A stretch of DNA of 64,000 nt from an uncultured Alphaproteobacteria bacterium (GTDB taxonomy: Bacteria; Pseudomonadota; Alphaproteobacteria; Rs-D84). Both the position numbers and the translations under genes were made by a program. The first letter of the stretch is position 1, and every line of letters begins with the position of its first letter. Shown here one piece after another: positions 29,448 through 42,871 of this stretch. The stretch spans positions 169,532 to 233,531 of the forward strand of contig CALXMY010000001.1 in NCBI GenBank assembly GCA_944389595.1. Direction: 5' to 3'. The notes beneath the pieces were generated by a model, which saw nothing but the letters and a program-made list of their open reading frames with translations, was not told the DNA's origin and made no database searches.

Positions 29448-30296
29448 TTATATTTTGAAATCGGTATTTGCTGAAAATAACTTCTGGTTAAAACCTGTTG
29501 GATGTACGGGTATCGGCATGGCGCATATTGCGCCCGCCAACGCATCCAATCCGTCATCGTGCATGCCACCACCAATCGGGGCCCAGCCCAACATTTCTGA
29601 AATCAGTGGGGTTGATTGTATTCGCACATGCGCATACATACGCCCAGATGTCAGAATCGGTTCAATGGCATCCAAAATCCTGGTTTCTTTGTTTTTTGTG
29701 TTTGTAATTCTGTTTATGGTTATTGTCATATTGCGGTGTGTTGATACATCGCGCATAATTTCTGGCAGTGCGTTTCCGATACCATTTGTTTCAATACTTA
29801 TTCGACGTATACCGTGATGGGCCATAAAATTTAATACTGTATCACATTGTCGTGCCAATGGATGTAATTCGTCGTCCGAAACCAATAAATACAGCACATC
29901 ATGAATAAATACGCATCTGTTTTTATCATCGCGGTACAATAATACGCATACGCTGCCATCAGAATTTTTATGTCCTGTGGATGGGTCCCAATAAATTGTG
30001 GCACCTGTAATCTTTGTGTTGCCAATTCGTGCAGTTCGTGCATCAAATTCCCCATTATACAGATGCAATGCGTCTGGATCCAAACGCGCCCTGTCAGGGG
30101 CGATAAAATCCAACATCATTTGTGCCGAAAAATATCGTGTGCCAACCATATCGCGAATTTCATTAATGCGCGTAATTGGAAACATTTCTGGCCACACGGG
30201 TTCGCCATCTGCGGAAATTATGGGAATTTTTAATTCACGATATCCGCGTAAAAAAGGCGTTGAAAAACTAAAATTTTTATATACCATATCTGACAT
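29448..30296 (-). CDS. terminase large subunit, C-terminal nuclease half
   Basis: PFL...WPEMF, FSAQMML, YWDPS, IETNGIG, KETRI and HDDGLDALAGA; GGGG SD on the minus strand inside dnaB codons. Confidence 0.85.
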   Translation of the reverse strand: MSDMVYKNFSFSTPFLRGYRELKIPIISADGEPVWPEMFPITRINEIRDMVGTRYFSAQMMLDFIAPDRARLDPDALHLYNGEFDARTARIGNTKITGATIYWDPSTGHKNSDGSVCVLLYRDDKNRCVFIHDVLYLLVSDDELHPLARQCDTVLNFMAHHGIRRISIETNGIGNALPEIMRDVSTHRNMTITINRITNTKNKETRILDAIEPILTSGRMYAHVRIQSTPLISEMLGWAPIGGGMHDDGLDALAGAICAMPIPVHPTGFNQKLFSANTDFKI

Positions 30297-33621: not shown

Positions 33622-34221
33622 TCATTCATGGGTACGATATATTGTATCCATTGTATGCGGGGTGCCAATGTAAATCATTGTACCATTGGGCGATAAAATA
33701 AAATCTAATTCGCGCAATCGTTCACGCAGATTTTCACGTTTTTGTGCGGTATTACTGGTGTTTGGTACCTCTATGTCATCGCATATAATTAAATCAGACC
33801 GCATACCTGTAATATTACCATGGATACCCTGGCATATAACGGATGGTTCGCGTATTCCAATTGGGCGATTTACTGTTATACGATCGTGCGCCCATTCTTT
33901 TTTAGTTGCCGGAATCAAATCTTTGCACATTGGATGATTTTCCAGTATATGTCGAATATGTGTGACCATTCGTGCCGCCAGATTATTTTCGGCCGATAAA
34001 ATTAAAATTCTGGTTGATGGATTCATGCGTAACACACACGCGGCAAATATTCCAACAACAGTCGATTTACCCGAATGCCGAAATGCCATTAATAATCCAC
34101 GATGTGGCGGTGTGGTCCATATTGATACCAAAAATTCCATAATAGTACGGTGATGTGCCGGTGTCCCCAGCCCCAGCACATCATTCCATGCATCCAAAAA
34201 CGCATAAAAATCATTTACCAT
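33622..34221 (-). CDS. terminase large subunit, N-terminal ATPase half
   Basis: P.HH, Walker A LLMAFRHSGKST, ITG.RSDLIICDDIE (Walker B) and YIGTP coupling motif, then a stop. Confidence 0.88.
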   Translation of the reverse strand: MVNDFYAFLDAWNDVLGLGTPAHHRTIMEFLVSIWTTPPHRGLLMAFRHSGKSTVVGIFAACVLRMNPSTRILILSAENNLAARMVTHIRHILENHPMCKDLIPATKKEWAHDRITVNRPIGIREPSVICQGIHGNITGMRSDLIICDDIEVPNTSNTAQKRENLRERLRELDFILSPNGTMIYIGTPHTMDTIYRTHE

Positions 34222-34229
34222 TGTTAATA

Positions 34230-34577
34230 CTAACCAACCAAATCATCAAATTTATCTAATATTGTTTGTAATAAATTTGGCCGTTTAGCCCGTGTATTAC
34301 GCAGTTTTTCAATGTTTGATTTACGTTTTTCGTTGTATGGTTCCGCTGTTTCCGATGCCAAACGTTTTAATACCGCGCCTGTGGACATGCTGCGCCCGGA
34401 AACCCCGGATGCACCATATTTTGCGCGCTGTGTGGCCAATGTTTTTTTTACCAAATTTGTTTTTTCACGTTCGTCATTTGCCATATCGGCCAATATTTTT
34501 TGGCGTTCGTTTGCGGCCTCTTTTTTTGAATCACGATAATTTAATATTGATGTAACATCAGATACTAATTGTCCCAT
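34230..34577 (-). CDS. putative internal virion/ejection-like protein
   Basis: Helical; QRAKYGASGV motif typical of podovirus internal proteins; follows the tail nozzle gene. Confidence 0.55.
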   Translation of the reverse strand: MGQLVSDVTSILNYRDSKKEAANERQKILADMANDEREKTNLVKKTLATQRAKYGASGVSGRSMSTGAVLKRLASETAEPYNEKRKSNIEKLRNTRAKRPNLLQTILDKFDDLVG

Positions 34578-34595
34578 TTGTTTTTCCTTTGTTTT

Positions 34596-36311
34596 TTATA
34601 CAATATAATAGCCATATGTCGTAATTGATAACACAGTTGCACGGAATTGTTCGGTGCTGGAAATTGTCCATGGTGCATTTGTACATGTACGTTGGCATCC
34701 CATAAAGTTTATGCATACATCGCCGGTATACCCGTTTGATTCAGAATCGTATATATCATTTGGCAGCGATGCACGTTCGCCATTTATAAAAATAGTTTTT
34801 GTATCCGAAATTCTGGCAACAATTTTTCGTATGCGCAGCATGTGTGCATTATGGCCCGATGCACGCATCGGTAATGCCGCCGCGGTATATGAAAAATCAT
34901 ATTGTTCGGCATCGCGTATGGCATCGTCTGAAAATCTTTCCAAATAATATTCGTTGCCACGCGCGACAACGACATATGTTTCATCGCCGGTTGTGGCCAC
35001 TGATTTGAATTGTCCATTTGTCGTATATCGTGCCCATGCAGAAATGCCCAATGCAGAATTTTGATTTAATACCGCCATATCGCCATTTGACATAACAACA
35101 AACAGTTGTCGGATTGCGGGGTTATATGATAAATCCACCGGATTATGCATCAAATGTTTGGCCTGGGTACACAAATCGCGCGCATTATAATTTTCGCCCA
35201 ATGCATCCAACGATAATTCGCGAATGTCCTTTTGTGTGTTTGATATAAATACAGTTGCGCCCTCTATTTTTTGTGGTGGCAGATATCGTGTCGTCACACT
35301 GCCCACGGATGTATGTTGTTTTATGTCAACATTTGACGGTGTTAACGGTTTGCTGGAAATTGCCCATTCACCGGCATTAGTTAATATTTGCAGATTATCA
35401 CTGCTGACAACTGTACATATTTCCTGGCGTTGTTGGGATAACAGTGTTAAAAATATTGCTTCGTCGTCCAATCCGGTGCCGGTATCAAAGTTATTATGAT
35501 GCCCAACACGGGACATCCAAATTCCGCCGGGCCATTCGCGCGAACCGCCAAACACTAATCTGTCCTGGTGAAATGTGATGCTGCATGGCCATCCACGACG
35601 TGCACTGAATGCGGATTCATACCAATCTGTAACAGGCGAGGGCGGAATGTTATATTGTTTGTTCGTATATGCATATATGACGGTCGGGCTGATATATTTT
35701 ACAATTTGCCATTGATTGTTCAGCAACATCAACTGGCCGCCAACACAATTTTGCGTCCAAAAATCTTGGTTAGTGGTAAATGTGGCATAGTTATTACCGT
35801 AACTGTTTGGTGTGACTGTAATTTTAATATCTTTTGAATCGTCAAAGCGCATAAATGGGATATTGATGGTCATATCGGCATCGTTGCGTTCAAATTCAAA
35901 TGGAATTAAACTAAATATATCATCAGATTTTTGCAATATTTGTGGTTGATAATCTGGGTGTACAAAAATCATAGTACCAAAACGTTGGGCATATTGTAAT
36001 TTTGGTAAATCATCAACATCCCATGGCGACATCATATCGCGTATGCGCGTGGTGCCATCATATATCATAAAGTGCCCATCGGTCAGAACAATTAAATAAT
36101 TTTCCGTATTCCCCATAGAGAAAGGAATTAATCGCGCCACAGAATTCAGTTCCGCGACCGATTCCAATCCGCGTCGCCGTTTTAATCCACCGCCGGCCAT
36201 AACATCCATATTTTCCAATTTTGATAATCCATTTAAATTATCGTGCGCAAAAAATTCTGGGGACACTTCGCCATCAGCAAAAGAATTTTGAGTCTTTATA
36301 AAATCGGCCAT
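34596..36311 (-). CDS. tail tubular protein B (nozzle, T7 gp12-like)
   Basis: QNSF..GEVSP, GG..RR.G, F.QDRL.FGG and AW.RY motifs. Confidence 0.85.
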   Translation of the reverse strand: MADFIKTQNSFADGEVSPEFFAHDNLNGLSKLENMDVMAGGGLKRRRGLESVAELNSVARLIPFSMGNTENYLIVLTDGHFMIYDGTTRIRDMMSPWDVDDLPKLQYAQRFGTMIFVHPDYQPQILQKSDDIFSLIPFEFERNDADMTINIPFMRFDDSKDIKITVTPNSYGNNYATFTTNQDFWTQNCVGGQLMLLNNQWQIVKYISPTVIYAYTNKQYNIPPSPVTDWYESAFSARRGWPCSITFHQDRLVFGGSREWPGGIWMSRVGHHNNFDTGTGLDDEAIFLTLLSQQRQEICTVVSSDNLQILTNAGEWAISSKPLTPSNVDIKQHTSVGSVTTRYLPPQKIEGATVFISNTQKDIRELSLDALGENYNARDLCTQAKHLMHNPVDLSYNPAIRQLFVVMSNGDMAVLNQNSALGISAWARYTTNGQFKSVATTGDETYVVVARGNEYYLERFSDDAIRDAEQYDFSYTAAALPMRASGHNAHMLRIRKIVARISDTKTIFINGERASLPNDIYDSESNGYTGDVCINFMGCQRTCTNAPWTISSTEQFRATVLSITTYGYYIV

Positions 36312-36326
36312 AATAATCCCCCTGTG

Positions 36327-36848
36327 TTAAAATCGTGCATTTATTAATGAAAAGTTATTTATACGGTTGTCTGGGTTTGATGCAGTGCTGTCAATAAATT
36401 TTGCAGATTGTAATTCGCTTTCATACAATGCGGCCAACATGCGGAATACAGATTGATCGCCGGTCAATGGTATACAAAATTCCATCGCCAATTTTGTTGC
36501 AACCAATGATGAAAAATACGCCGGAAACTGTTGTGCATCAATACGTATAATCGCAGTTATGGAAATTGTATCATTGTCTGATATAATTCTGTTGCCAACT
36601 ATATTTCCGCCACATCGTAACACGCGCAGGCATTCACCCGGAATTATAAAATTGCCGTCGGTGCTTTTTGCCAAATCAAAATGTTTGCATGCAAATCGCC
36701 ACGGATGTGATGCCAATAATGTATCAACAACTGGATTAAACAGTGTTCGCGACAATTGCGATGCAGGATTATCATCGTTCAATGATTGTATTGGCTTTTC
36801 ACCCAATTTTAATAACGCCATTGAACATAAATCGATTTTTGTTTGCAT
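36327..36848 (-). CDS. tail tubular protein A (adaptor, T7 gp11-like)
   Basis: IDLCSMAL..LG..PI.S...LL..HPWRFA, FP.YF...LA and A..IDS motifs. Confidence 0.85.
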   Translation of the reverse strand: MQTKIDLCSMALLKLGEKPIQSLNDDNPASQLSRTLFNPVVDTLLASHPWRFACKHFDLAKSTDGNFIIPGECLRVLRCGGNIVGNRIISDNDTISITAIIRIDAQQFPAYFSSLVATKLAMEFCIPLTGDQSVFRMLAALYESELQSAKFIDSTASNPDNRINNFSLINARF

Positions 36849-36870
36849 ATCTTAATACCCTGGGTTAGAA

Positions 36871-36902
36871 AAAATCGGGACAGTTAAAAACCGTCCCGAT
36901 AA
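36871..36902 (-). terminator. terminator after the capsid and decoration genes
   Basis: ATCGGGAC...GTCCCGAT hairpin with a T run on the minus strand. Confidence 0.7.
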
Positions 36903-36906
36903 ATTG

Positions 36907-37137
36907 TTATGATAAGGCAGCAACAGAAACATTCGTTGAATCAACAGAAATTTTTTTAATTGATGTGTTGTCAGAACCGTTGATTATTATAATGTCCCCG
37001 GTGTTCATCAATGTTTTTACACTGTTAAAATATCCCGATGTACTGATTGTCGCCAATGTTTCCGATGCAGCATAATGCCACAATGTAAATCCATTTGCGT
37101 ATGCAATCACAGATAAATTTTTATTTTGAAACGCCAT
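36907..37137 (-). CDS. small capsid-associated (decoration-like) protein
   Basis: MAFQNKNLSVIAYANGFTLWHY...GYFN...GD.I; sits between the capsid gene and its terminator. Confidence 0.7.
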   Translation of the reverse strand: MAFQNKNLSVIAYANGFTLWHYAASETLATISTSGYFNSVKTLMNTGDIIIINGSDNTSIKKISVDSTNVSVAALS

Positions 37138-37183
37138 TTGATTTGTTCCTTTGGTTGTTTTGGTTGAACTTGATGTCAATCGA

Positions 37184-38014
37184 CTATTCCGTTTCATCTG
37201 AATCCTTGCATTTAATTCTTACGATACCATCGGCATCAATCATAACTGCGCCCTGGGACATGCTGTTGCTGATAAAGTGCGCCGCACGTTCACCATGCCA
37301 CGAGATATCTGTTTTTACCTCTTGGCCACATGCGTGCCCGATACTGGTTGCGTGATACATAAAACAATCGCGATTAGTTCCGGTCAACGGCAAATCGTTA
37401 TACAACACCCATGTAATCCCCAGCCATTTTTTTGATGCGCCACCGGAAATCATCGGCAAATTATCGCCAACATAATCCGCAGAAACAAATTCGTCCATTG
37501 ACAATAATTCGTTCCATTGATGTACGCCAACAACCGCAAATCTGCGGCCGTCATCCGGCACATCATTTTGATTCAACACTTCCAATGCAGATAAAATTAA
37601 ATCTTTGCTAAGTCCGGTTGAATAATCGCCGATTGATTTGGTTGCGCCGTTCATTGCGGATACAATCAATTCATCGGTTTTGCGGCCCAGTGCATATGCG
37701 CCGGCCGATGCAACCACACGACGTTCATCAACGTTTGTTTTTAATTCATCCAATGCATCAACCCAATCACCTGCATAATAATCTTGTAATACACATTCAA
37801 CAGGTTCATGATTTAAATTCATAACTGGTACAATACCATGACGCGATTTTGTGCTGGCGGTGCCACGTCCAACTTTTTGAAACGTAGTGGATGCCCCAAC
37901 AACGCCGGATTTACTGCGCACGGTGGCGCGTAATTTTGTGCCCATTTGTTGATATGCCAAATGAACGTCGGCCTCGAATTGTTTTATAAAGACCTGGTCA
38001 ACTGAAACAGACAT
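37184..38014 (-). CDS. major capsid protein
   Basis: FIKQFEADVHLAYQQMGTKLR, WVD.LD.LK, AYALGRKTD and S.GA..ID..G, characteristic of podovirus-type capsids in alphaproteobacterial clusters. Confidence 0.88.
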   Translation of the reverse strand: MSVSVDQVFIKQFEADVHLAYQQMGTKLRATVRSKSGVVGASTTFQKVGRGTASTKSRHGIVPVMNLNHEPVECVLQDYYAGDWVDALDELKTNVDERRVVASAGAYALGRKTDELIVSAMNGATKSIGDYSTGLSKDLILSALEVLNQNDVPDDGRRFAVVGVHQWNELLSMDEFVSADYVGDNLPMISGGASKKWLGITWVLYNDLPLTGTNRDCFMYHATSIGHACGQEVKTDISWHGERAAHFISNSMSQGAVMIDADGIVRIKCKDSDETE

Positions 38015-38136
38015 TTTTAATTTTCCTTTGTTTATAAAAAATGAAACAGCAATAAAAATTGCGATTATATTTTTAAATGGTTATGCATAACACTATGCGC
38101 CATATATAAACTGGGTCCCGGTTGGGATTATCCAAA

Positions 38137-38179
38137 AAAATATTCAGTCAGACGCGCGTACATTCTGACTGAATATTTT
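38137..38179. repeat. 16-bp inverted repeat upstream of the capsid gene
   Basis: AAAATATTCAGTCAGA-(11 nt)-TCTGACTGAATATTTT. Confidence 0.7.
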
Positions 38180-38225
38180 AAAAAAATTATTCAAATAAAA
38201 ATCCCCGTTTTACCGGGGATTCAAA

Positions 38226-38579
38226 TTATTTTCTTTTTGCACATGCTTTTTTAGCAACCGGCTTTTTCGCGGCCACTTTTTTCGCAGGTGCTTTTTTAGC
38301 AACTGGTTTTTTAGCTGCGACTTTTTTTACAACTGCTTTTTTAGCAACTGGTTTTTTTGCAGCAACTTTTTTCGCAGGTGCTTTTTTAGCAACTGGTTTT
38401 TTTGCAGCAACTTTTTTCACAGGTGCTTTTTTAGCAACTGGTTTTTTTGCAACGACTTTTTTCGCAGCAGGTTTCTTCGCAGCAGGTTTTTTCACTGCCG
38501 GTTTTTTTGCAGCCGGTTTCGCCGCTGGCTTTTTCGCAGCAGGTTTCTTTGCAGCTGGTTTCAAGAATGTGAATGCCAT
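38226..38579 (-). CDS. histone H1-like Lys/Ala/Pro-repeat protein (HctB/AlgP-like)
   Basis: [17 protein letters not shown]...([14 protein letters not shown])n; AAGGAG SD; own terminator at ~38197-38222. Confidence 0.88.
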
Positions 38580-38683
38580 TCTTCTCTCCTTTTTATTTTT
38601 TGGATAGAACAAACTTTTTTGTTCTTACTTACATTTTATACGAAAGAAAAAAAATAGTAAAGGAGAAAGTGCATTTTTTTTTA

Positions 38684-39340
38684 TTACGAATATAATTTTT
38701 TAAAACCATTTTCAATTTTGCGAACGTATTCTGGATCATGATCACGCCAATATTTTGGATCACGCATCATGCGTCGCAATTCATCATCAGTTAAATTTTT
38801 TGATGCCACATCATCTGTTTGAACATGTGGTTCCATTGATTGCATCATTGCATATACGCTGCGGATTCCCTGGGGTGTGGCGCACAGTGCATCAAACGCA
38901 TCACGTGGTAAATATTTTTCGCCGAATGCATTTATTGCAATTAATGCTTCGCGCATTTTATCACTGTCCCCGAAAAAATTTTTTAATTCATTTGTTGCAT
39001 TTGTTTCATCTTGGGCATCAAACAATTCTGATAAAACAGGTTTCAAATATTCTTCGGCAATTTGATAAATTTTTTCAACCTGTGTTTTTGTCAGTCCCAT
39101 TTCAAAAAATTTTTCACGAACCGAATCGTCATCAAATAATTTATTTTCCGGATATTCCGATGCAGACATTGGTACGCCAATTGCATGATTAAACTTTGCG
39201 CGCGCATCTGCGTCCGCGTTTTCATCAGGCACAGAAATCATCGTTCCGATTTTCTTTTCCAATGCAGCATACGATTTCAATAATGCGTCAGTATTTAATG
39301 TTCCGTCTTTATTCAGAAATTTTTCTGGAATTTTCTCCAT
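38684..39340 (-). CDS. capsid assembly/scaffold protein
   Basis: MEKIPEKF...DALLKSY.ALEKK, GLT..Q and M.DPKYW..DP motifs; upstream of the capsid gene. Confidence 0.8.
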   Translation of the reverse strand: MEKIPEKFLNKDGTLNTDALLKSYAALEKKIGTMISVPDENADADARAKFNHAIGVPMSASEYPENKLFDDDSVREKFFEMGLTKTQVEKIYQIAEEYLKPVLSELFDAQDETNATNELKNFFGDSDKMREALIAINAFGEKYLPRDAFDALCATPQGIRSVYAMMQSMEPHVQTDDVASKNLTDDELRRMMRDPKYWRDHDPEYVRKIENGFKKLYS

Positions 39341-39530
39341 TTGTTTTTCCTTTGGTTTCGCTGGATTTGCGCAGAAAATAAATTCCGCCAAATGTAAATA
39401 TTGATTGCAGCATTGTAAATACATCTGTGTCACCAACCAGATACGCACCGATTGATGATAATATTCCAATGCCTGATATAATGTATGTTCTGTGTCCGGC
39501 CAGAAAACCGCCACTGATAATTTTTTGCAT
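39309..39530 (-). CDS. holin-like small membrane protein
   Basis: G.RTYI motif, two hydrophobic segments, FLR and a basic tail; coupled to the cell wall hydrolase gene. Confidence 0.6.
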   Translation of the reverse strand: MQKIISGGFLAGHRTYIISGIGILSSIGAYLVGDTDVFTMLQSIFTFGGIYFLRKSSETKGKTNGENSRKISE

Positions 39531-39548
39531 TTTGTAATCCGTTTTGTT

Positions 39549-39959
39549 TTACAGATAAAACAATAATCCATCTATGTCGGCAATATAACCACGCGATATT
39601 GCCCATGCGGGTATTTTACAATCGCGATGAAAACGTGTGGCCCCATAACAACAATCGGGCAGGCCGCCGTGTAACATACGTGTCGCAACGCGAACACACA
39701 TTTGCATTTCGCGATTATTTATTTCCACATTATTTAAATGATGATTGCGTGACGCGGGATTTATTGATTCGAATAATTCTGTATCAGACACAACATCATC
39801 AATTGTGCGGCCGGTTGCGATTGCATTATTTTTTATCATTGATGTCAGTGCTTCGACCACACGCAGTGATGCCGCACATGTTTCCGCATATACAACGCGT
39901 GCAATTTTATATGCAATCCGTTGTGAACTGTCCGGATTTTTTATCAATATTAATTTCAT
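39549..39959 (-). CDS. SleB-like cell wall hydrolase (Hydrolase_2), divergent
   Basis: IARVVYAE (catalytic Glu position), LPD...GAT.FH, P.WA and I....FY. Confidence 0.75.
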   Translation of the reverse strand: MKLILIKNPDSSQRIAYKIARVVYAETCAASLRVVEALTSMIKNNAIATGRTIDDVVSDTELFESINPASRNHHLNNVEINNREMQMCVRVATRMLHGGLPDCCYGATRFHRDCKIPAWAISRGYIADIDGLLFYL

Positions 39960-40114: not shown

Positions 40115-40795
40115 CTACATACTGATTTCATCGCCATATGCCAGCATATATCGTGAACCATTGCGCAATACCAACGCGCCATTTTCGTTGATTCCGATTA
40201 ATTCAACATTATCACCACGGTATTTAACAATTTTGTTTAATCCGGTTGCTAAATCCATCCATCGTGCACGTATCAATGGAAAATCAATTTGCCGCCATTT
40301 GTCCAAATTTTTCATCAATTTATTTAACAGTTCTGATTTTTCAACGCGCGCATAGTTGTCCAGTTTTGTTGTTTTATAACCGGGCACGGTTGGATTGGAT
40401 TTAATATTTATTCCAATTCCAATAATTACAAAGCGTCCCGCGTATTCAATCAATATCCCACAAACTTTTTTATCATCAATTAAAATATCATTTGGCCATT
40501 TTATTTTTGGATTTATACCAAAGGATATTAACGTTTCTGTAACCGCCACCGCAACAACATATGCCAGGCGCGGGTCGCGTTCTTCGGCAGAAAATATAAA
40601 ACTGGCGTATAAATTGCCATGGTGTGAAACCCATGTGCGGTGATATCGTCCGCGACCATCAGATTGGGCCTCGGCCATTATGACGGTATGGTCGCGCGCA
40701 TCACCCATTGCAACCATATTTAATGCATATGTTTGCGTGCTGGGGATTTTATCAAAAGAAATTAATTTATAGCCGGCCAATTTTATACACCCCAT
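40115..40795 (-). CDS. birA: biotin--[acetyl-CoA-carboxylase] ligase
   Basis: IPSTQ, Q..GRGR....W.S, KWPND and KK.CGIL motifs. Confidence 0.95.
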   Translation of the reverse strand: MGCIKLAGYKLISFDKIPSTQTYALNMVAMGDARDHTVIMAEAQSDGRGRYHRTWVSHHGNLYASFIFSAEERDPRLAYVVAVAVTETLISFGINPKIKWPNDILIDDKKVCGILIEYAGRFVIIGIGINIKSNPTVPGYKTTKLDNYARVEKSELLNKLMKNLDKWRQIDFPLIRARWMDLATGLNKIVKYRGDNVELIGINENGALVLRNGSRYMLAYGDEISM

Positions 40796-41189
40796 TTGAA
40801 TTTATTATAAATTCACGCCCAAATGTTTTTCGTAATTGATATATTGCAGTATCCAATGCATGTGTTGTTGCATCTGGTGAATACCCCAATGCGGCCCGTA
40901 AATCTGTGGCGGACATGCCGCCCGATTTATATAACAATATAACGATTTGTGATTGTATATGTGGTAATTGCACATTTCGGCCAAAAATTTTGCGCAACAA
41001 TTGAATGTTTCCATCAATGGAATTTAATATTGCGGCCTTGATTTCAACGGGACTGGCCGGCATGGGAATTTCCAACGAATCAAAATCCAAAAATGTTTTA
41101 TCCGGCACATCGGACACAGTTGCGCCCATCTCGGCCAGTATCTGGCACCATATTTTGTCGGCCGAATAAATTTTTATTCCATTCAACAT
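40767..41189 (-). CDS. OmpR-type winged-helix protein with degenerate receiver
   Basis: LGYSPDATTHALDTAIYQLRK...GVYKI (Trans_reg_C-like); likely start MLNGIK at 41189. Confidence 0.75.
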   Translation of the reverse strand: MLNGIKIYSADKIWCQILAEMGATVSDVPDKTFLDFDSLEIPMPASPVEIKAAILNSIDGNIQLLRKIFGRNVQLPHIQSQIVILLYKSGGMSATDLRAALGYSPDATTHALDTAIYQLRKTFGREFIINSNGVYKIGRL

Positions 41190-41278
41190 ATCAATAACAG
41201 AATAGTAAAACATACCCATGTTGTCCAATAAAATCGACCGCGGTAAAACCGCGGTCAATATTGCGCGATTATAATATA

Positions 41279-41524
41279 CTATTCGCGTTCTTTGCTTTGT
41301 GGACCAATGAACTTGGTAAAATCTTGGATACTGGCACCGGTTGATGACAGAATTTTTGAAATACTGTTCGTGGACGGCCACCGTGGTTGGCCTTCTTTGG
41401 ACCATCTTTTGCTGCGATTAAAAGTGGTGGGATCCAACCCGCTGCATTTTGCCAAACCTGAACACGACATACCGTGTTCTGTTGCAAAGCGTTCAATTGC
41501 CTGCCAAACATCTTCATGGGTCAT
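41279..41524 (-). CDS. phage-repressor-like HTH regulator lacking the S24 domain
   Basis: MTHEDVWQAIERFA...SGLAK.SGLDPTTFN.SKR....RWPST.SI.K, the N-terminal domain of a conserved alphaproteobacterial CI-like family; GAGGAG SD. Confidence 0.85.
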   Translation of the reverse strand: MTHEDVWQAIERFATEHGMSCSGLAKCSGLDPTTFNRSKRWSKEGQPRWPSTNSISKILSSTGASIQDFTKFIGPQSKERE

Positions 41525-41730
41525 TTTTTCTCTCCTCTGGTTACTATTCGGAAAAATCCGAATTTTTTGACATATGGGACATATGTCTGATATTGATTTT
41601 ATTCCACTGCGTCCGACCAGGCAACAAGGACCATTTCCTAATTCATTGATTATAGTCCTAAAAATAATACCAAAAAATAATTTTGACAAAAATACTTGAC
41701 AAATAACATAAAATGTATTACATTTCGATT

Positions 41731-41921
41731 CGTCAAAGGGGGTAACCCCGGCGATGGGGCGCAAGCCCCCATGGGGTCCAGGGATTCAGACTCCCTCCTA
41801 CATTCTCTCTCCTCTGGACTCTGGGCCCCAATTTTATGGTTTAGAATGCCCATTTCTTTTTCTCCTTTCCTTCCTTTCGGGGCATTCGGAAACACCGGCG
41901 GGAAACCGCCGGCGTTTTTTT
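41731..41921 (+). ncRNA. candidate sRNA with CU-rich (anti-SD) loops
   Basis: TTGACA-17-TACATT promoter (41696-41724); four GC-rich hairpins, two with pyrimidine-rich loops; strong terminator CCGGCGG-GAAA-CCGCCGG + T run. Confidence 0.7.
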
Positions 41922-41944
41922 ATTAACAGTAAATTTATTGATAA

Positions 41945-42871
41945 TTACTTTTCAAATACTGAAAACAGTTCCCAATGTGCACTGCCAACGAATTGATCAA
42001 TCGGTATCAATGTTTTTAATTTATACCCACCATGCAGCAAAATGTTTGAATCGCGTCGCCATGTTATCGGATTGCATGAAACATAAATTATACGCGGAAC
42101 ATTACTGGGACTTAATTGCGTGCATTGCGCAAATGCGCCCGCACGTGGCGGATCCAATACCACGCAATCATATGCATTCAACATATTTGTTGTTAATGGG
42201 TGGGTGAATAAATCACGTTTTGTACCAATACCGTTTATATCAAATCCGTCCGCATTTAATGTAAATGTAAAATTACCCAATCCACAAAATAAATCTGCGA
42301 TATGATGTGCGCCGGTGGCCGCATCTGTAACCAGATTTCGTATTATGGTTTCGCTGGGTTCGGTTGGTTGTAAAAATGCGCCAGATGGGTATTCAACGAT
42401 ATTTCCATCAAATTTTATTATCGGATTAATGCGATTAATCACAATGCGATTATTCCATGTTATCCGAATAATCCCCGGTATTTTTTCTGCGCTTGATTTA
42501 AATTCCGAACTGAAATAGGGCACCGTTGATGTCACCGCAACATCAATTCCATTGTCACAAATCGTAACCAAACACGCCCCCATACCGCCCCATGGCAATT
42601 CCGCCAGTTTTGGCAACACATCATTTATTTCCGGGCACATTAATGGGCAACAGCGCACCGGAACAATTGTTTTTGAACGGTGCATATAAAGGCCAAAATT
42701 ACCACCAGCAAATGCAAAATCCGCGCGTCGCCGTGTCCCGGGATTGGTCCATATTGGGGCATTTGTTACGGGCAATTTTTGAATTTCTGATAATTTTTGT
42801 TCACGATAACTTGGTGATGCAAAATCATATTTGCATCCACCACAAACGCCAAAAAACGGACATCTTTTCAT
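41945..42871 (-). CDS. rlmD: RlmD/TrmA-family RNA m5U methyltransferase
   Basis: CPFFGVCGGC, AFLQ, DLFCGLG, LDPPRAG and YVSCNP. Confidence 0.88.
   Translation of the reverse strand: MKRCPFFGVCGGCKYDFASPSYREQKLSEIQKLPVTNAPIWTNPGTRRRADFAFAGGNFGLYMHRSKTIVPVRCCPLMCPEINDVLPKLAELPWGGMGACLVTICDNGIDVAVTSTVPYFSSEFKSSAEKIPGIIRITWNNRIVINRINPIIKFDGNIVEYPSGAFLQPTEPSETIIRNLVTDAATGAHHIADLFCGLGNFTFTLNADGFDINGIGTKRDLFTHPLTTNMLNAYDCVVLDPPRAGAFAQCTQLSPSNVPRIIYVSCNPITWRRDSNILLHGGYKLKTLIPIDQFVGSAHWELFSVFEK

Follow-up and report, generated by a model that had tools for sequence, protein, structure and literature searches.

Organization of the sRNA locus

The DNA analysed in this study is a stretch of 64,000 nucleotides (nt), referred to below as the window, from the genome (G000) of an uncultured alphaproteobacterium of the order Rs-D84 (assembly GCA_944389595.1, contig CALXMY010000001.1, positions 169,532 to 233,531); all coordinates given without a contig name are those of the window. 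Its plus strand carries a gene of approximately 190 nt for a small RNA (sRNA; 41731-41921), which diverges from a minus-strand gene for a helix-turn-helix (HTH) protein of 81 amino acids (aa; 41282-41524, start codon ATG at 41524-41522) and is convergent with a minus-strand rlmD-like methyltransferase gene (41948-42871). The sRNA is single-copy in G000, and the approximately 190 nt between its promoter and terminator are richer in GC than the surroundings.

A consensus scan placed the sRNA promoter at 41696-41724 (-35 box TTGACA at 41696-41701, a 17-nt spacer and -10 box TACATT at 41719-41724); the 5' end of the gene was set from the -10 box, and its 3' end is the T-run of the terminator. A second, invariant TTGACA is located 13 nt upstream of the -35 box (41683-41688). 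The resulting tandem, TTGACAA...CTTGACAAAT, is invariant or nearly so at 25/25 loci of the genus and is kept in most other genera. This pair of TTGACA(A) boxes, 12-13 nt apart (41683-41701), might represent a tandem promoter or a direct-repeat binding site.

Hairpins 1 and 2 occupy the 5' side of the sRNA (41730-41769), hairpin 2 being variable and missing in some species. They are followed by hairpin 3 (41772-41830), which bears loop 1 (22 nt, CUCCCUCCUACAUUCUCUCUCC, 41791-41812), and by hairpin 4 (41844-41887), which bears loop 2 (28 nt, AUUUCUUUUUCUCCUUUCCUUCCUUUCG, 41852-41879). Loop 2 is the antisense of an idealised Shine-Dalgarno (SD) sequence with an A-rich spacer and AUG. The unit closes with an intrinsic terminator, composed of a covarying 7-bp GC stem (41895-41912), extended pairing (41888-41919) and a run of seven T ending at 41921.

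On the opposite strand, the ribosome-binding site (RBS) of the HTH gene (41529-41540; CCAGAGGAGAGA in the mRNA) is the exact complement of sRNA positions 41806-41817. The likely HTH promoter is TTGCCT-17-TAAAAT (41596-41624, minus strand), the -10 box of which is conserved, together with a flanking block, in the intergenic alignment. Immediately 5' of the SD, the leader contains an inverted repeat able to form a hairpin (41546-41563, minus strand); in an alignment read by eye and unscored, its sequence varies among species (ATTCGGA.../CCGGG.../ATAGG.../ATTGG...) and the hairpin is kept. A TTG-started open reading frame (ORF) of 161 aa (41279-41764) extends the HTH frame through the intergenic region into the sRNA, and two database proteins (177 and 218 aa, 89% identical, without a Pfam domain) may be over-long gene calls of the same kind in relatives.

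Fold and covariation of the sRNA

The segment 41731-41921 is an independent, genuine sRNA gene. A first description made from the letters alone (hereafter the sequence-only reading) had proposed a unit of about 190 nt with promoter, hairpins, terminator and CU-rich loops, and it held in each of these respects. The plus strand folds into four hairpins and the terminator with -84.6 kcal/mol (z -4.56; none of 200 shuffled sequences was equally stable), compared with a z of -1.65 for the opposite strand, and both quoted loop sequences are unpaired in the predicted fold: CTCCCTCCTACATTCTCTCTCC at 41791-41812 and TTTCTTTTTCTCCTTTCCTTCCTT within the 28-nt loop at 41852-41879.

In an alignment of 25 sequences of the genus both loops are invariant (loop 2 in 25/25), while the stems change. 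The 18 pairs of hairpin 3 are 91.6% paired, with changes on both sides at 7 pairs, and the 8 pairs of hairpin 4 are 100% paired, with such changes at 4. For the RNA as a whole, 85.4% of the pair cells are paired, versus 33-54% when the 3' partners are slid, and both-side changes number 22, versus 7-10 in the slid controls; the observed covariation score was reached by 0/500 column shuffles. The same pattern of hairpin 3, hairpin 4 and terminator is predicted when each of the 25 sequences is folded singly.

Three studies provided RNA libraries whose assembled contigs overlap the sRNA (X10, 41710-41921; X11, 41767-41922; X6, the whole region), and a further one, X8, spans the HTH coding region. 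In two RNA runs little beyond the sRNA is covered within a 2.5-kb region, and in one run the HTH coding region only. We did not accept these contigs as proof of a transcript: they carry no information on ends, strand or level, their uncovered parts are uninformative, and one of them reaches the promoter DNA. An 81-aa ORF on the minus strand (41650-41895), with a 67-aa version starting from an internal ATG behind a perfect-looking RBS, was rejected as an artefact, because loop 2 is the antisense of an RBS. The internal ATG is lost in relatives (CCCATTTC versus CCAATTTC, CTCTATTTC and CCCGTTTC), and the spacer lengths vary by non-multiples of three.

Distribution of the RNA family

The RNA family is confined to Candidatus Enterousia and its relatives in the order Rs-D84, the hosts being gut alphaproteobacteria with genomes of about 0.9 Mb. 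One copy of the sRNA was found by blastn in each of the 24 genus genomes drawn (24/24, 76-94% identity). A covariance model (CM), built from 25 genus copies and run with stricter filters on 151 genomes of the order, G000 included, detected the sRNA (G000 not counted) in 106/107 genomes of the genus, 13/14 genomes of other genera of the family and 1/29 genomes of other families. Laxer filters, applied to five of the other-family genomes, yielded weak matches in two of them, namely hairpins with the loop-1 variant UCCCUCCUUAUUUUCUCUCUCCUC, and the G026 hairpin is preceded by a TTGACA/TATAAT promoter. Beyond the one family in which full-length copies were found, families f3, f4 and f5 have divergent loop-1 hairpins.

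Hairpin 3 is contained in 16 of the 17 matches from other genera, and its 28-nt core, AGACTCCCTCCTACATTCTCTCTCCTCT, is identical in 14 of these 16; loop 1 is carried there by wholly different stems, and the C-G pair that closes it is replaced by U-A. The exact 26-nt core of loop 1 is present in at least 120 species genomes. Most of the 80 matches listed for it are Ca. Enterousia or uncultured (alpha)proteobacterial/'Rickettsiales' metagenome-assembled genomes from the gut, and six are Muribaculaceae bins.

Single hairpin modules stand alone or separated in some genomes (G101, G050, G151). At one locus (L069, G050:C35:2323-6668) the hairpin of loop 1 and that of loop 2 are matched as distinct units with some 100 nt between them, an arrangement that points to a modular RNA. 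An HNH endonuclease gene is some 650 nt away from the lone loop-1 hairpin of G151 (L070). A phage-like contig from IMG/VR, with an Erf-like annealing protein encoded nearby, carries a lone hairpin with the exact loop 1 on an unrelated stem, right after the stop codon of an ORF (L073:1427-1618). Three of the four 'viral' copies in IMG/VR were discarded as pieces of the Enterousia chromosome with HTH, 150-aa ORF and BirA genes. BLAST and CM matches to loop 2 in other families were discarded too, as they are an RBS and ATG read backwards and not sRNAs.

No curated Rfam 15 family, AbcR-type and housekeeping RNAs included, matches the sRNA at the gathering score or with an E value up to 10, and it is not a known housekeeping RNA. 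At the gathering score Rfam finds only 3 tRNAs in the window, and the best sub-threshold match over the locus is ylbH (26.4 bits versus 50). The models of 6S RNA and signal recognition particle (SRP) RNA match nothing anywhere in the G000 genome, and the four-hairpin shape fits neither of them; the sRNA is therefore neither 6S nor SRP RNA. The SRP RNA of G000 is probably divergent or unassembled. The 13-contig assembly of G000 contains no 16S gene or rRNA operon, and the anti-SD sequence thus cannot be read from it.

Complementarity to the dnaA start

Within the genus, the best-supported target is predicted to be dnaA, acted upon through loop 2. Complementarity was ranked against a background of 878 crude gene starts of G000 (non-overlapping ORFs of at least 80 aa, with the HTH start added by hand), and the same 878 starts served as background for the ranks in other genomes. 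In G000, the start region of dnaA, identified by the Pfam domains Bac_DnaA, DnaA_N and Bac_DnaA_C, matches loop 2 perfectly over 16 nt (AAAGGAAGGAAAGGAG) immediately 5' of the start, the best of all 878. We found dnaA in 24 of the 25 genus genomes, the missing one being a 70%-complete assembly, and in 24/24 its start shows 8-22 nt of perfect complementarity to loop 2 (at least 13 nt in 16/24). The duplex energies range from -17.8 to -36.6 kcal/mol, and dnaA ranks third or better of 878 in 22/24 genomes, versus 0/25 for enolase, a control gene with a canonical strong RBS. When cofolded with the sRNA, the dnaA leader gains -19.4 kcal/mol, compared with -8.3±3.8 for shuffled leaders.

Outside the family, the dnaA match is 8-9 nt long in genus g3 of family f3. 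In G028, of family f5, 19 nt of the dnaA start region, TTAAGAGGAGAGAGAAAAT(G), are perfectly complementary to the loop-1 variant of that same genome, also at the bases specific to the variant. The pairing of dnaA with different loops in two lineages is the strongest argument that the loops act by base pairing.

The dnaA leader itself shows a feature of separate interest: about 35 nt of it, GGCAGGAAACTCTTTT and a purine tract, are conserved across much of the genus (G000:C2 ~199060-199126, L201; orthologues L203-L225). Its CUCUUUU could pair with AAAGGAG and sequester the SD, suggesting that the leader may have a regulatory hairpin of its own.

Further candidate targets were noted. The start of an ABC-transporter ATPase gene, which reads AGAGAAUGUA or GAGAGAGAAU, is complementary over at least 9 nt to the non-SD centre of loop 1 (UACAUUCUCU) in 8/25 genomes. 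Other high-scoring starts belong to several outer-membrane or secreted proteins, one of them a Pfam-confirmed outer-membrane beta-barrel, and to putative NusA, LpxC and HU, named from their N-terminal sequences read by eye. An oleate-hydratase-like gene was rejected as a loop-1 target, being an accessory gene whose match is kept in 2/7 cases.

Taken feature by feature, the gene has several of the traits that characterize an anti-RBS sRNA: its own promoter and intrinsic terminator outside any mRNA, and a conserved unpaired seed within a covariation-supported structure. Complementarity to a target exceeds that of the control gene in the case of dnaA, and in the case of the HTH gene only within one clade.

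Complementarity to the ribosome-binding site of the HTH gene

The sequence-only reading had centred on a 12-mer, TCTCTCCTCTGG, shared by the sRNA and the divergent HTH gene. Its occurrence was confirmed: it is found on the plus strand at 41529-41540 and 41806-41817, two matches versus 0.00 expected from 100 dinucleotide-preserving shuffles. The copy at 41529-41540 is the antisense of the RBS and lies 4 nt before the HTH start codon; as the ATG is at 41524-41522 and the mRNA reads CCAGAGGAGAGAAAAAAUG, the 12-mer covers the SD region. Its placement within a loop was correct only in part, since the sRNA copy spans the border of loop and stem, with 7/12 bases (41806-41812) in loop 1 and 5/12 in the 3' arm of the stem.

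In G000 the HTH start is the top loop-1 target (duplex energy -25.2 kcal/mol, rank ~3), with 2/878 starts equal or better and one other gene having a 12-nt exact match to loop 1. With full structures cofolded, the HTH leader gains -13.0 kcal/mol versus -6.0±3.3 for shuffled leaders, 2/100 of which were as good. Across 25 evenly drawn genomes of the genus, the HTH match reaches at least 12 nt in 3/25 and at least 10 nt in 5/25; its median rank is 74 for loop 1 and 86 for loop 2, lying in the top 5% in 8-9/25 genomes and worse than 300 in 4/25. The HTH RBS is purine-only and strong (median SD energy -8.5, versus -5.7 for all genes). Enolase, with an 11-nt match to loop 2 in G000, has a median rank of 56 and is in the top 5% in 9/25. 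Because the ranks of the two genes are similar, the HTH site behaves, genus-wide, as a generic strong RBS.

In a second sample of 25 loci, which were the top CM scorers and are thus biased towards close kin, the match measures at least 12 nt in 9 and at least 10 nt in 13, and a 15-mer, CCAGAGGAGAGAGAA, is found in 7. In a tree of HTH and sRNA sequences (50 rows), all matches of at least 10 nt fall in one clade of 22 rows (support 99/95), 18/22 members of which have them, and the sister clade (16 rows) has matches of 6-8 nt. Within the clade the matches, 10-15 nt long, occur in two registers, CCAGAGGAGAGA(GAA) and AGGAGAGAGAAU, in a flanking intergenic sequence that has diverged. As a single origin is possible, these 18 matches should be taken for one event or a few. 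The complementarity that the sequence-only reading expected to be conserved is therefore kept in one clade, but not across the genus. Covariation between the 12-mer and the RBS cannot occur, as the sRNA side is invariant within the genus and the RBS side drifts; the single G-to-A change observed (L006) is compensated inside the hairpin and is unmatched by the RBS of that locus.

We read the HTH match as an apparent lineage-specific extension of pairing kept in one clade, and the HTH gene is probably a further, lineage-specific target of the sRNA in the clade of G000. A competing explanation is that the match is a generic or chance anti-SD hit, the two genes being neighbours by inherited synteny or the HTH protein regulating the sRNA in one direction only. 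The strength and purine-only composition of the HTH RBS would fit this explanation, since (GA)n against (UC)n is of low complexity, as would the four genomes with ranks worse than 300, the comparison with enolase and the preference of the cofold for loop 2. On the other hand, only 2/878 starts in G000 pair equally well with loop 1, at least 10 nt persist in 18/22 clade members despite the divergence of the surrounding intergenic sequence, and flanking bases outside the SD (CCAG or GAAU) stay complementary. We therefore regard a generic or chance match as possible, though rather on the unlikely side.

Proposed mode of action

We propose that the RNA is an Hfq-independent, multi-target, trans-acting anti-RBS sRNA whose loops pair directly with mRNAs, a reading that we consider probable, though by no means certain. 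The sRNA would be transcribed from its own sigma-70-type promoter and end at the intrinsic terminator; its two stable hairpins would expose long pyrimidine-rich loops that evolution has kept unchanged and that are antisense to the purine-rich regions where translation starts. Most likely, these loops pair directly with the RBSs of several mRNAs, which would block binding of the 30S subunit and possibly trigger decay without Hfq or ProQ. Neither Hfq nor ProQ was found in the G000 genome, which is 97% complete. What the data establish is that the gene exists, how it folds, that it is conserved and to which starts it is complementary; its transcription, its pairing in the cell, repression as a consequence and any feedback by the HTH protein are inferences.

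Several observations weigh against this proposal. As the loops are complementary to purine-rich RBSs, many strong RBSs match them by composition: nine further genes have at least 12 nt to loop 2, and enolase, as stated, is often in the top 5% (9/25). In five genomes representing four other genera of the family, dnaA has 7-9 nt in or next to the genome's own loop 2 in four, and in the fifth there is no match lying in the loops. The loops are also invariant in genera where the HTH gene pairs poorly (ranks 126, 37, 17 and 647 for the four homologues with a clear start codon). Since invariance is seen where neither dnaA nor the HTH gene pairs well, neither target explains it. With regard to the HTH match in particular, the last five bases of the 12-mer (UCUGG, 41813-41817) are buried in the 3' arm of the hairpin 3 stem, and in the minimum free energy cofold the HTH leader pairs not with loop 1 but with loop 2, which is fully open. 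Furthermore, the gene set is crude, its starts having been picked partly by SD strength with an assumed anti-SD motif, as the assembly has no 16S gene, and the RNA evidence is weak, consisting of assembled contigs only, for which DNA carry-over is possible.

Another explanation takes the loops as binding sites for a protein, for instance S1 of the ribosome, a protein with a cold-shock or KH domain or some other factor that binds pyrimidines; the RNA would then be a sponge or scaffold and the RBS complementarity a by-product of composition. Loops of 22-28 nt that do not change across genera with differing predicted mRNA partners, an invariance exceeding what a seed of 7-10 nt usually requires, speak for it, and so does the occurrence of hairpin modules alone or separated, once on a phage-like contig. 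However, the dnaA match in 24/24 genomes, up to 22 nt long, and the 19-nt match in G028 that follows the loop variant are hard to explain without RNA-RNA pairing, and no candidate protein has been identified. Protein binding as the sole role of the loops thus seems improbable, and direct pairing with RBSs, dnaA first among them, is the reading that we retain.

The HTH stub gene and the T7-like particle genes

The HTH gene product is, judged from its relatives, a CI/COG2932-type DNA-binding stub without an autoprotease domain. Over about 90% of its length it shares 54-61% identity with the N-termini of proteins of about 210 aa; 20 of its 23 longer matches carry PF00717 (Peptidase_S24), and 'phage repressor protein C with HTH and peptidase S24 domain' is the name given to several of them. 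The Pfam domain HTH_26 scores 19 bits on the protein, below the cut-off of 22. An N-terminal DNA-binding domain of the COG2932 type is present, whereas the C-terminal Peptidase_S24, found in relatives of 209-233 aa, is not; with the whole S24 domain missing, self-cleavage of the RecA type is not possible. Like the CI/COG2932 repressors it has the N-terminal HTH domain, but it stands on its own as a conserved stub and is not the repressor of a prophage.

An intact HTH gene, divergent from the sRNA, is present in 25/25 and a further 24/24 genomes of the genus (49/49), and in a genome of a sister genus (L056). It was not found in the flanks of 13 sRNA loci from 11 genomes of other genera, flanks that extended to at most 2 kb and were in several cases ended by contig ends. 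Homologues with 56-71% identity are located elsewhere in 5/5 such genomes searched, and in none of the five is the homologue followed by a 150-aa ORF, birA or cassette genes. The repressor/sRNA pair envisaged by the sequence-only reading thus stands for G000, where the 12-nt complementarity to the RBS of a CI-type gene is present; beyond the genus and one sister genus the two genes are not linked.

Downstream of the HTH gene a minus-strand run comprises a terminator-like hairpin, a 150-aa ORF (40770-41219), birA, a hydrolase gene and T7-like scaffold, capsid, tail and TerL genes. The product of the 150-aa ORF is possibly a winged-helix protein, as its C-terminal stretch matches Trans_reg_C (OmpR/PhoB winged helix) below the cut-off (16.5 bits, E 0.0088). 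In L056 and three IMG/VR pieces a homologue of this ORF is found after the HTH gene, and in the genus, as in genus g13, the ORF accompanies the HTH gene and birA. The T7-like particle gene cluster (33625-39959, minus strand) was recognized by PHROG matches (major head, tail, N-part of TerL and endolysin-like hydrolase) and by a Pfam T7 capsid assembly match. Its TerL is split in the window into an N (ATPase) part at 33625-34221 and a C (nuclease) part at 29451-30296, both on the minus strand; the approximately 3.3 kb between them hold plus-strand genes for a DnaB helicase and a double-HTH_3 XRE regulator, and an unknown 224-aa ORF.

Linkage of sRNA, HTH gene and cassette is present in genera g1 and g13 and absent in other genera. 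In genus g17 the sRNA lies in a gap of about 430 nt between the TerL halves of the cassette, on the same strand (L065, G134:C8:5715-9934). This location and the phage-like contig described above hint that the RNA is associated with phage-derived DNA, but they do not amount to evidence for a switch. None of the cassette start sites pairs notably with either loop, capsid ranking 688 and 623 of 878. Inspection of the HTH/sRNA intergenic alignment revealed no conserved palindromic operator, and the tandem TTGACAA, being retained also in genomes without linkage to the HTH gene, does not count as evidence for control by the HTH protein.

These findings bear on the dedicated bistable switch of the sequence-only reading, in which the sRNA would block the divergent repressor, the repressor would shut the sRNA promoter and the pair would govern the T7-like genes, regarded as similar to those of gene transfer agents. 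Although the perfect RBS match with its rank of ~3/878 and its retention in one clade, the divergent arrangement in 49/49 genomes and the sister genus, the position of the HTH gene at the head of the same-strand run and the location of the sRNA inside the g17 cassette would suit such a switch, it is very unlikely, as the sRNA greatly exceeds both the pairing and the adjacency in age and in spread, the HTH gene is missing from the flanks of the 13 loci mentioned and its homologues in the five genomes searched lie away from the cassette genes, the genus-wide complementarity is no better than that of enolase, no operator was seen, the cassette starts are not complementary to the loops, and a terminator-like hairpin follows the HTH gene. 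The proposed mutual inhibition and control of the particle genes are not supported; the switch should be downgraded in favour of the dnaA link, and the HTH match is real and probably meaningful in one clade.

A broader version of the anti-RBS reading may be considered, in which the RNA is a master post-transcriptional brake of a chaperone-less reduced genome and throttles replication initiation at the dnaA RBS. The pairing with dnaA would have been preserved, or formed anew, through different loops, namely loop 2 in Ca. Enterousia and a variant of loop 1 in another family, and the clade of G000 would also have captured the CI-type stub heading the run into the T7-like cassette. Although this is only a speculation, and an unlikely one as a whole, it would mean that particle production is coupled to replication or growth state.

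Comparison with known systems

Ca. Enterousia and related gut bacteria are uncultured and widespread, and their genomes measure less than 1 Mb. A literature search, supplements apart, found no publication on sRNAs of Ca. Enterousia or Rs-D84, and a term search of the accessible text of the Ca. Enterousia genome paper (PMC12306168) gave no 'sRNA', 'non-coding', 'phage' or 'Hfq'. If confirmed, an sRNA acting on dnaA without Hfq or ProQ would make a compact and testable example of replication controlled by an RNA, for which EcpR1 of rhizobia is the case documented so far, and would give a handle on how these bacteria set their growth rate. The clade-specific capture of the RBS of a neighbouring repressor would be a natural example of an old sRNA gaining new targets.

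The closest likeness in architecture is to the cuckoo RNAs (CcsR1-4/RSs0680a-d of Rhodobacter; alpha-r14 of Rhizobiales; RF02791), which, in the account given by PMC4615179, consist of neighbouring hairpins in which the stems vary and the pyrimidine-rich, anti-SD-like loops are conserved. These features, and the alphaproteobacterial hosts, are shared by the sRNA described here. However, the same source defines the cuckoo RNAs by CCUCCUCCC in each of 2-4 adjacent hairpin loops, and this motif is absent from both loops of the sRNA, which are unlike each other and much longer (22 and 28 nt). The CcsR1 model scores 13.1 bits against a gathering score of 65.3 and stays sub-threshold on the whole genome. 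Moreover, the sRNA is present in one copy with its own promoter and a divergent upstream gene, whereas cuckoo RNAs, in that account, occur in multiple copies or tandem clusters that share a transcript with a small ORF upstream. In addition, no gene for Hfq was detected in G000. In loop motif, model score and copy pattern alike, the sRNA is not a member of the cuckoo family.

In predicted function the sRNA resembles EcpR1 of Sinorhizobium meliloti, which the text of PMC4414408 describes as a trans-acting sRNA whose conserved stem-loop pairs through its loop with the dnaA mRNA, and with that of gcrA, and represses them independently of Hfq. EcpR1 has two stem-loops with a GC-rich loop 1, is confined to Rhizobiales and is induced in the stringent response (same source). 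The Rfam search, in which no family reached its threshold, gave no match in sequence or model, and the likeness is functional only: the loops reported here are CU-rich and anti-SD, and their pairing with dnaA is predicted.

RsaE of Firmicutes carries C-rich loop motifs that pair with the SD regions of several mRNAs. RNAIII, also of Firmicutes, is described in PMC4615179 as pairing with the SD regions of several mRNAs through UCCC hairpin loops. Both belong to an unrelated lineage and are unrelated in sequence, and their motifs are short (UCCC), in contrast to the long and invariant loops of the present RNA. The sRNA of the window forms a new family, probably of anti-RBS sRNAs, which are themselves a known kind.

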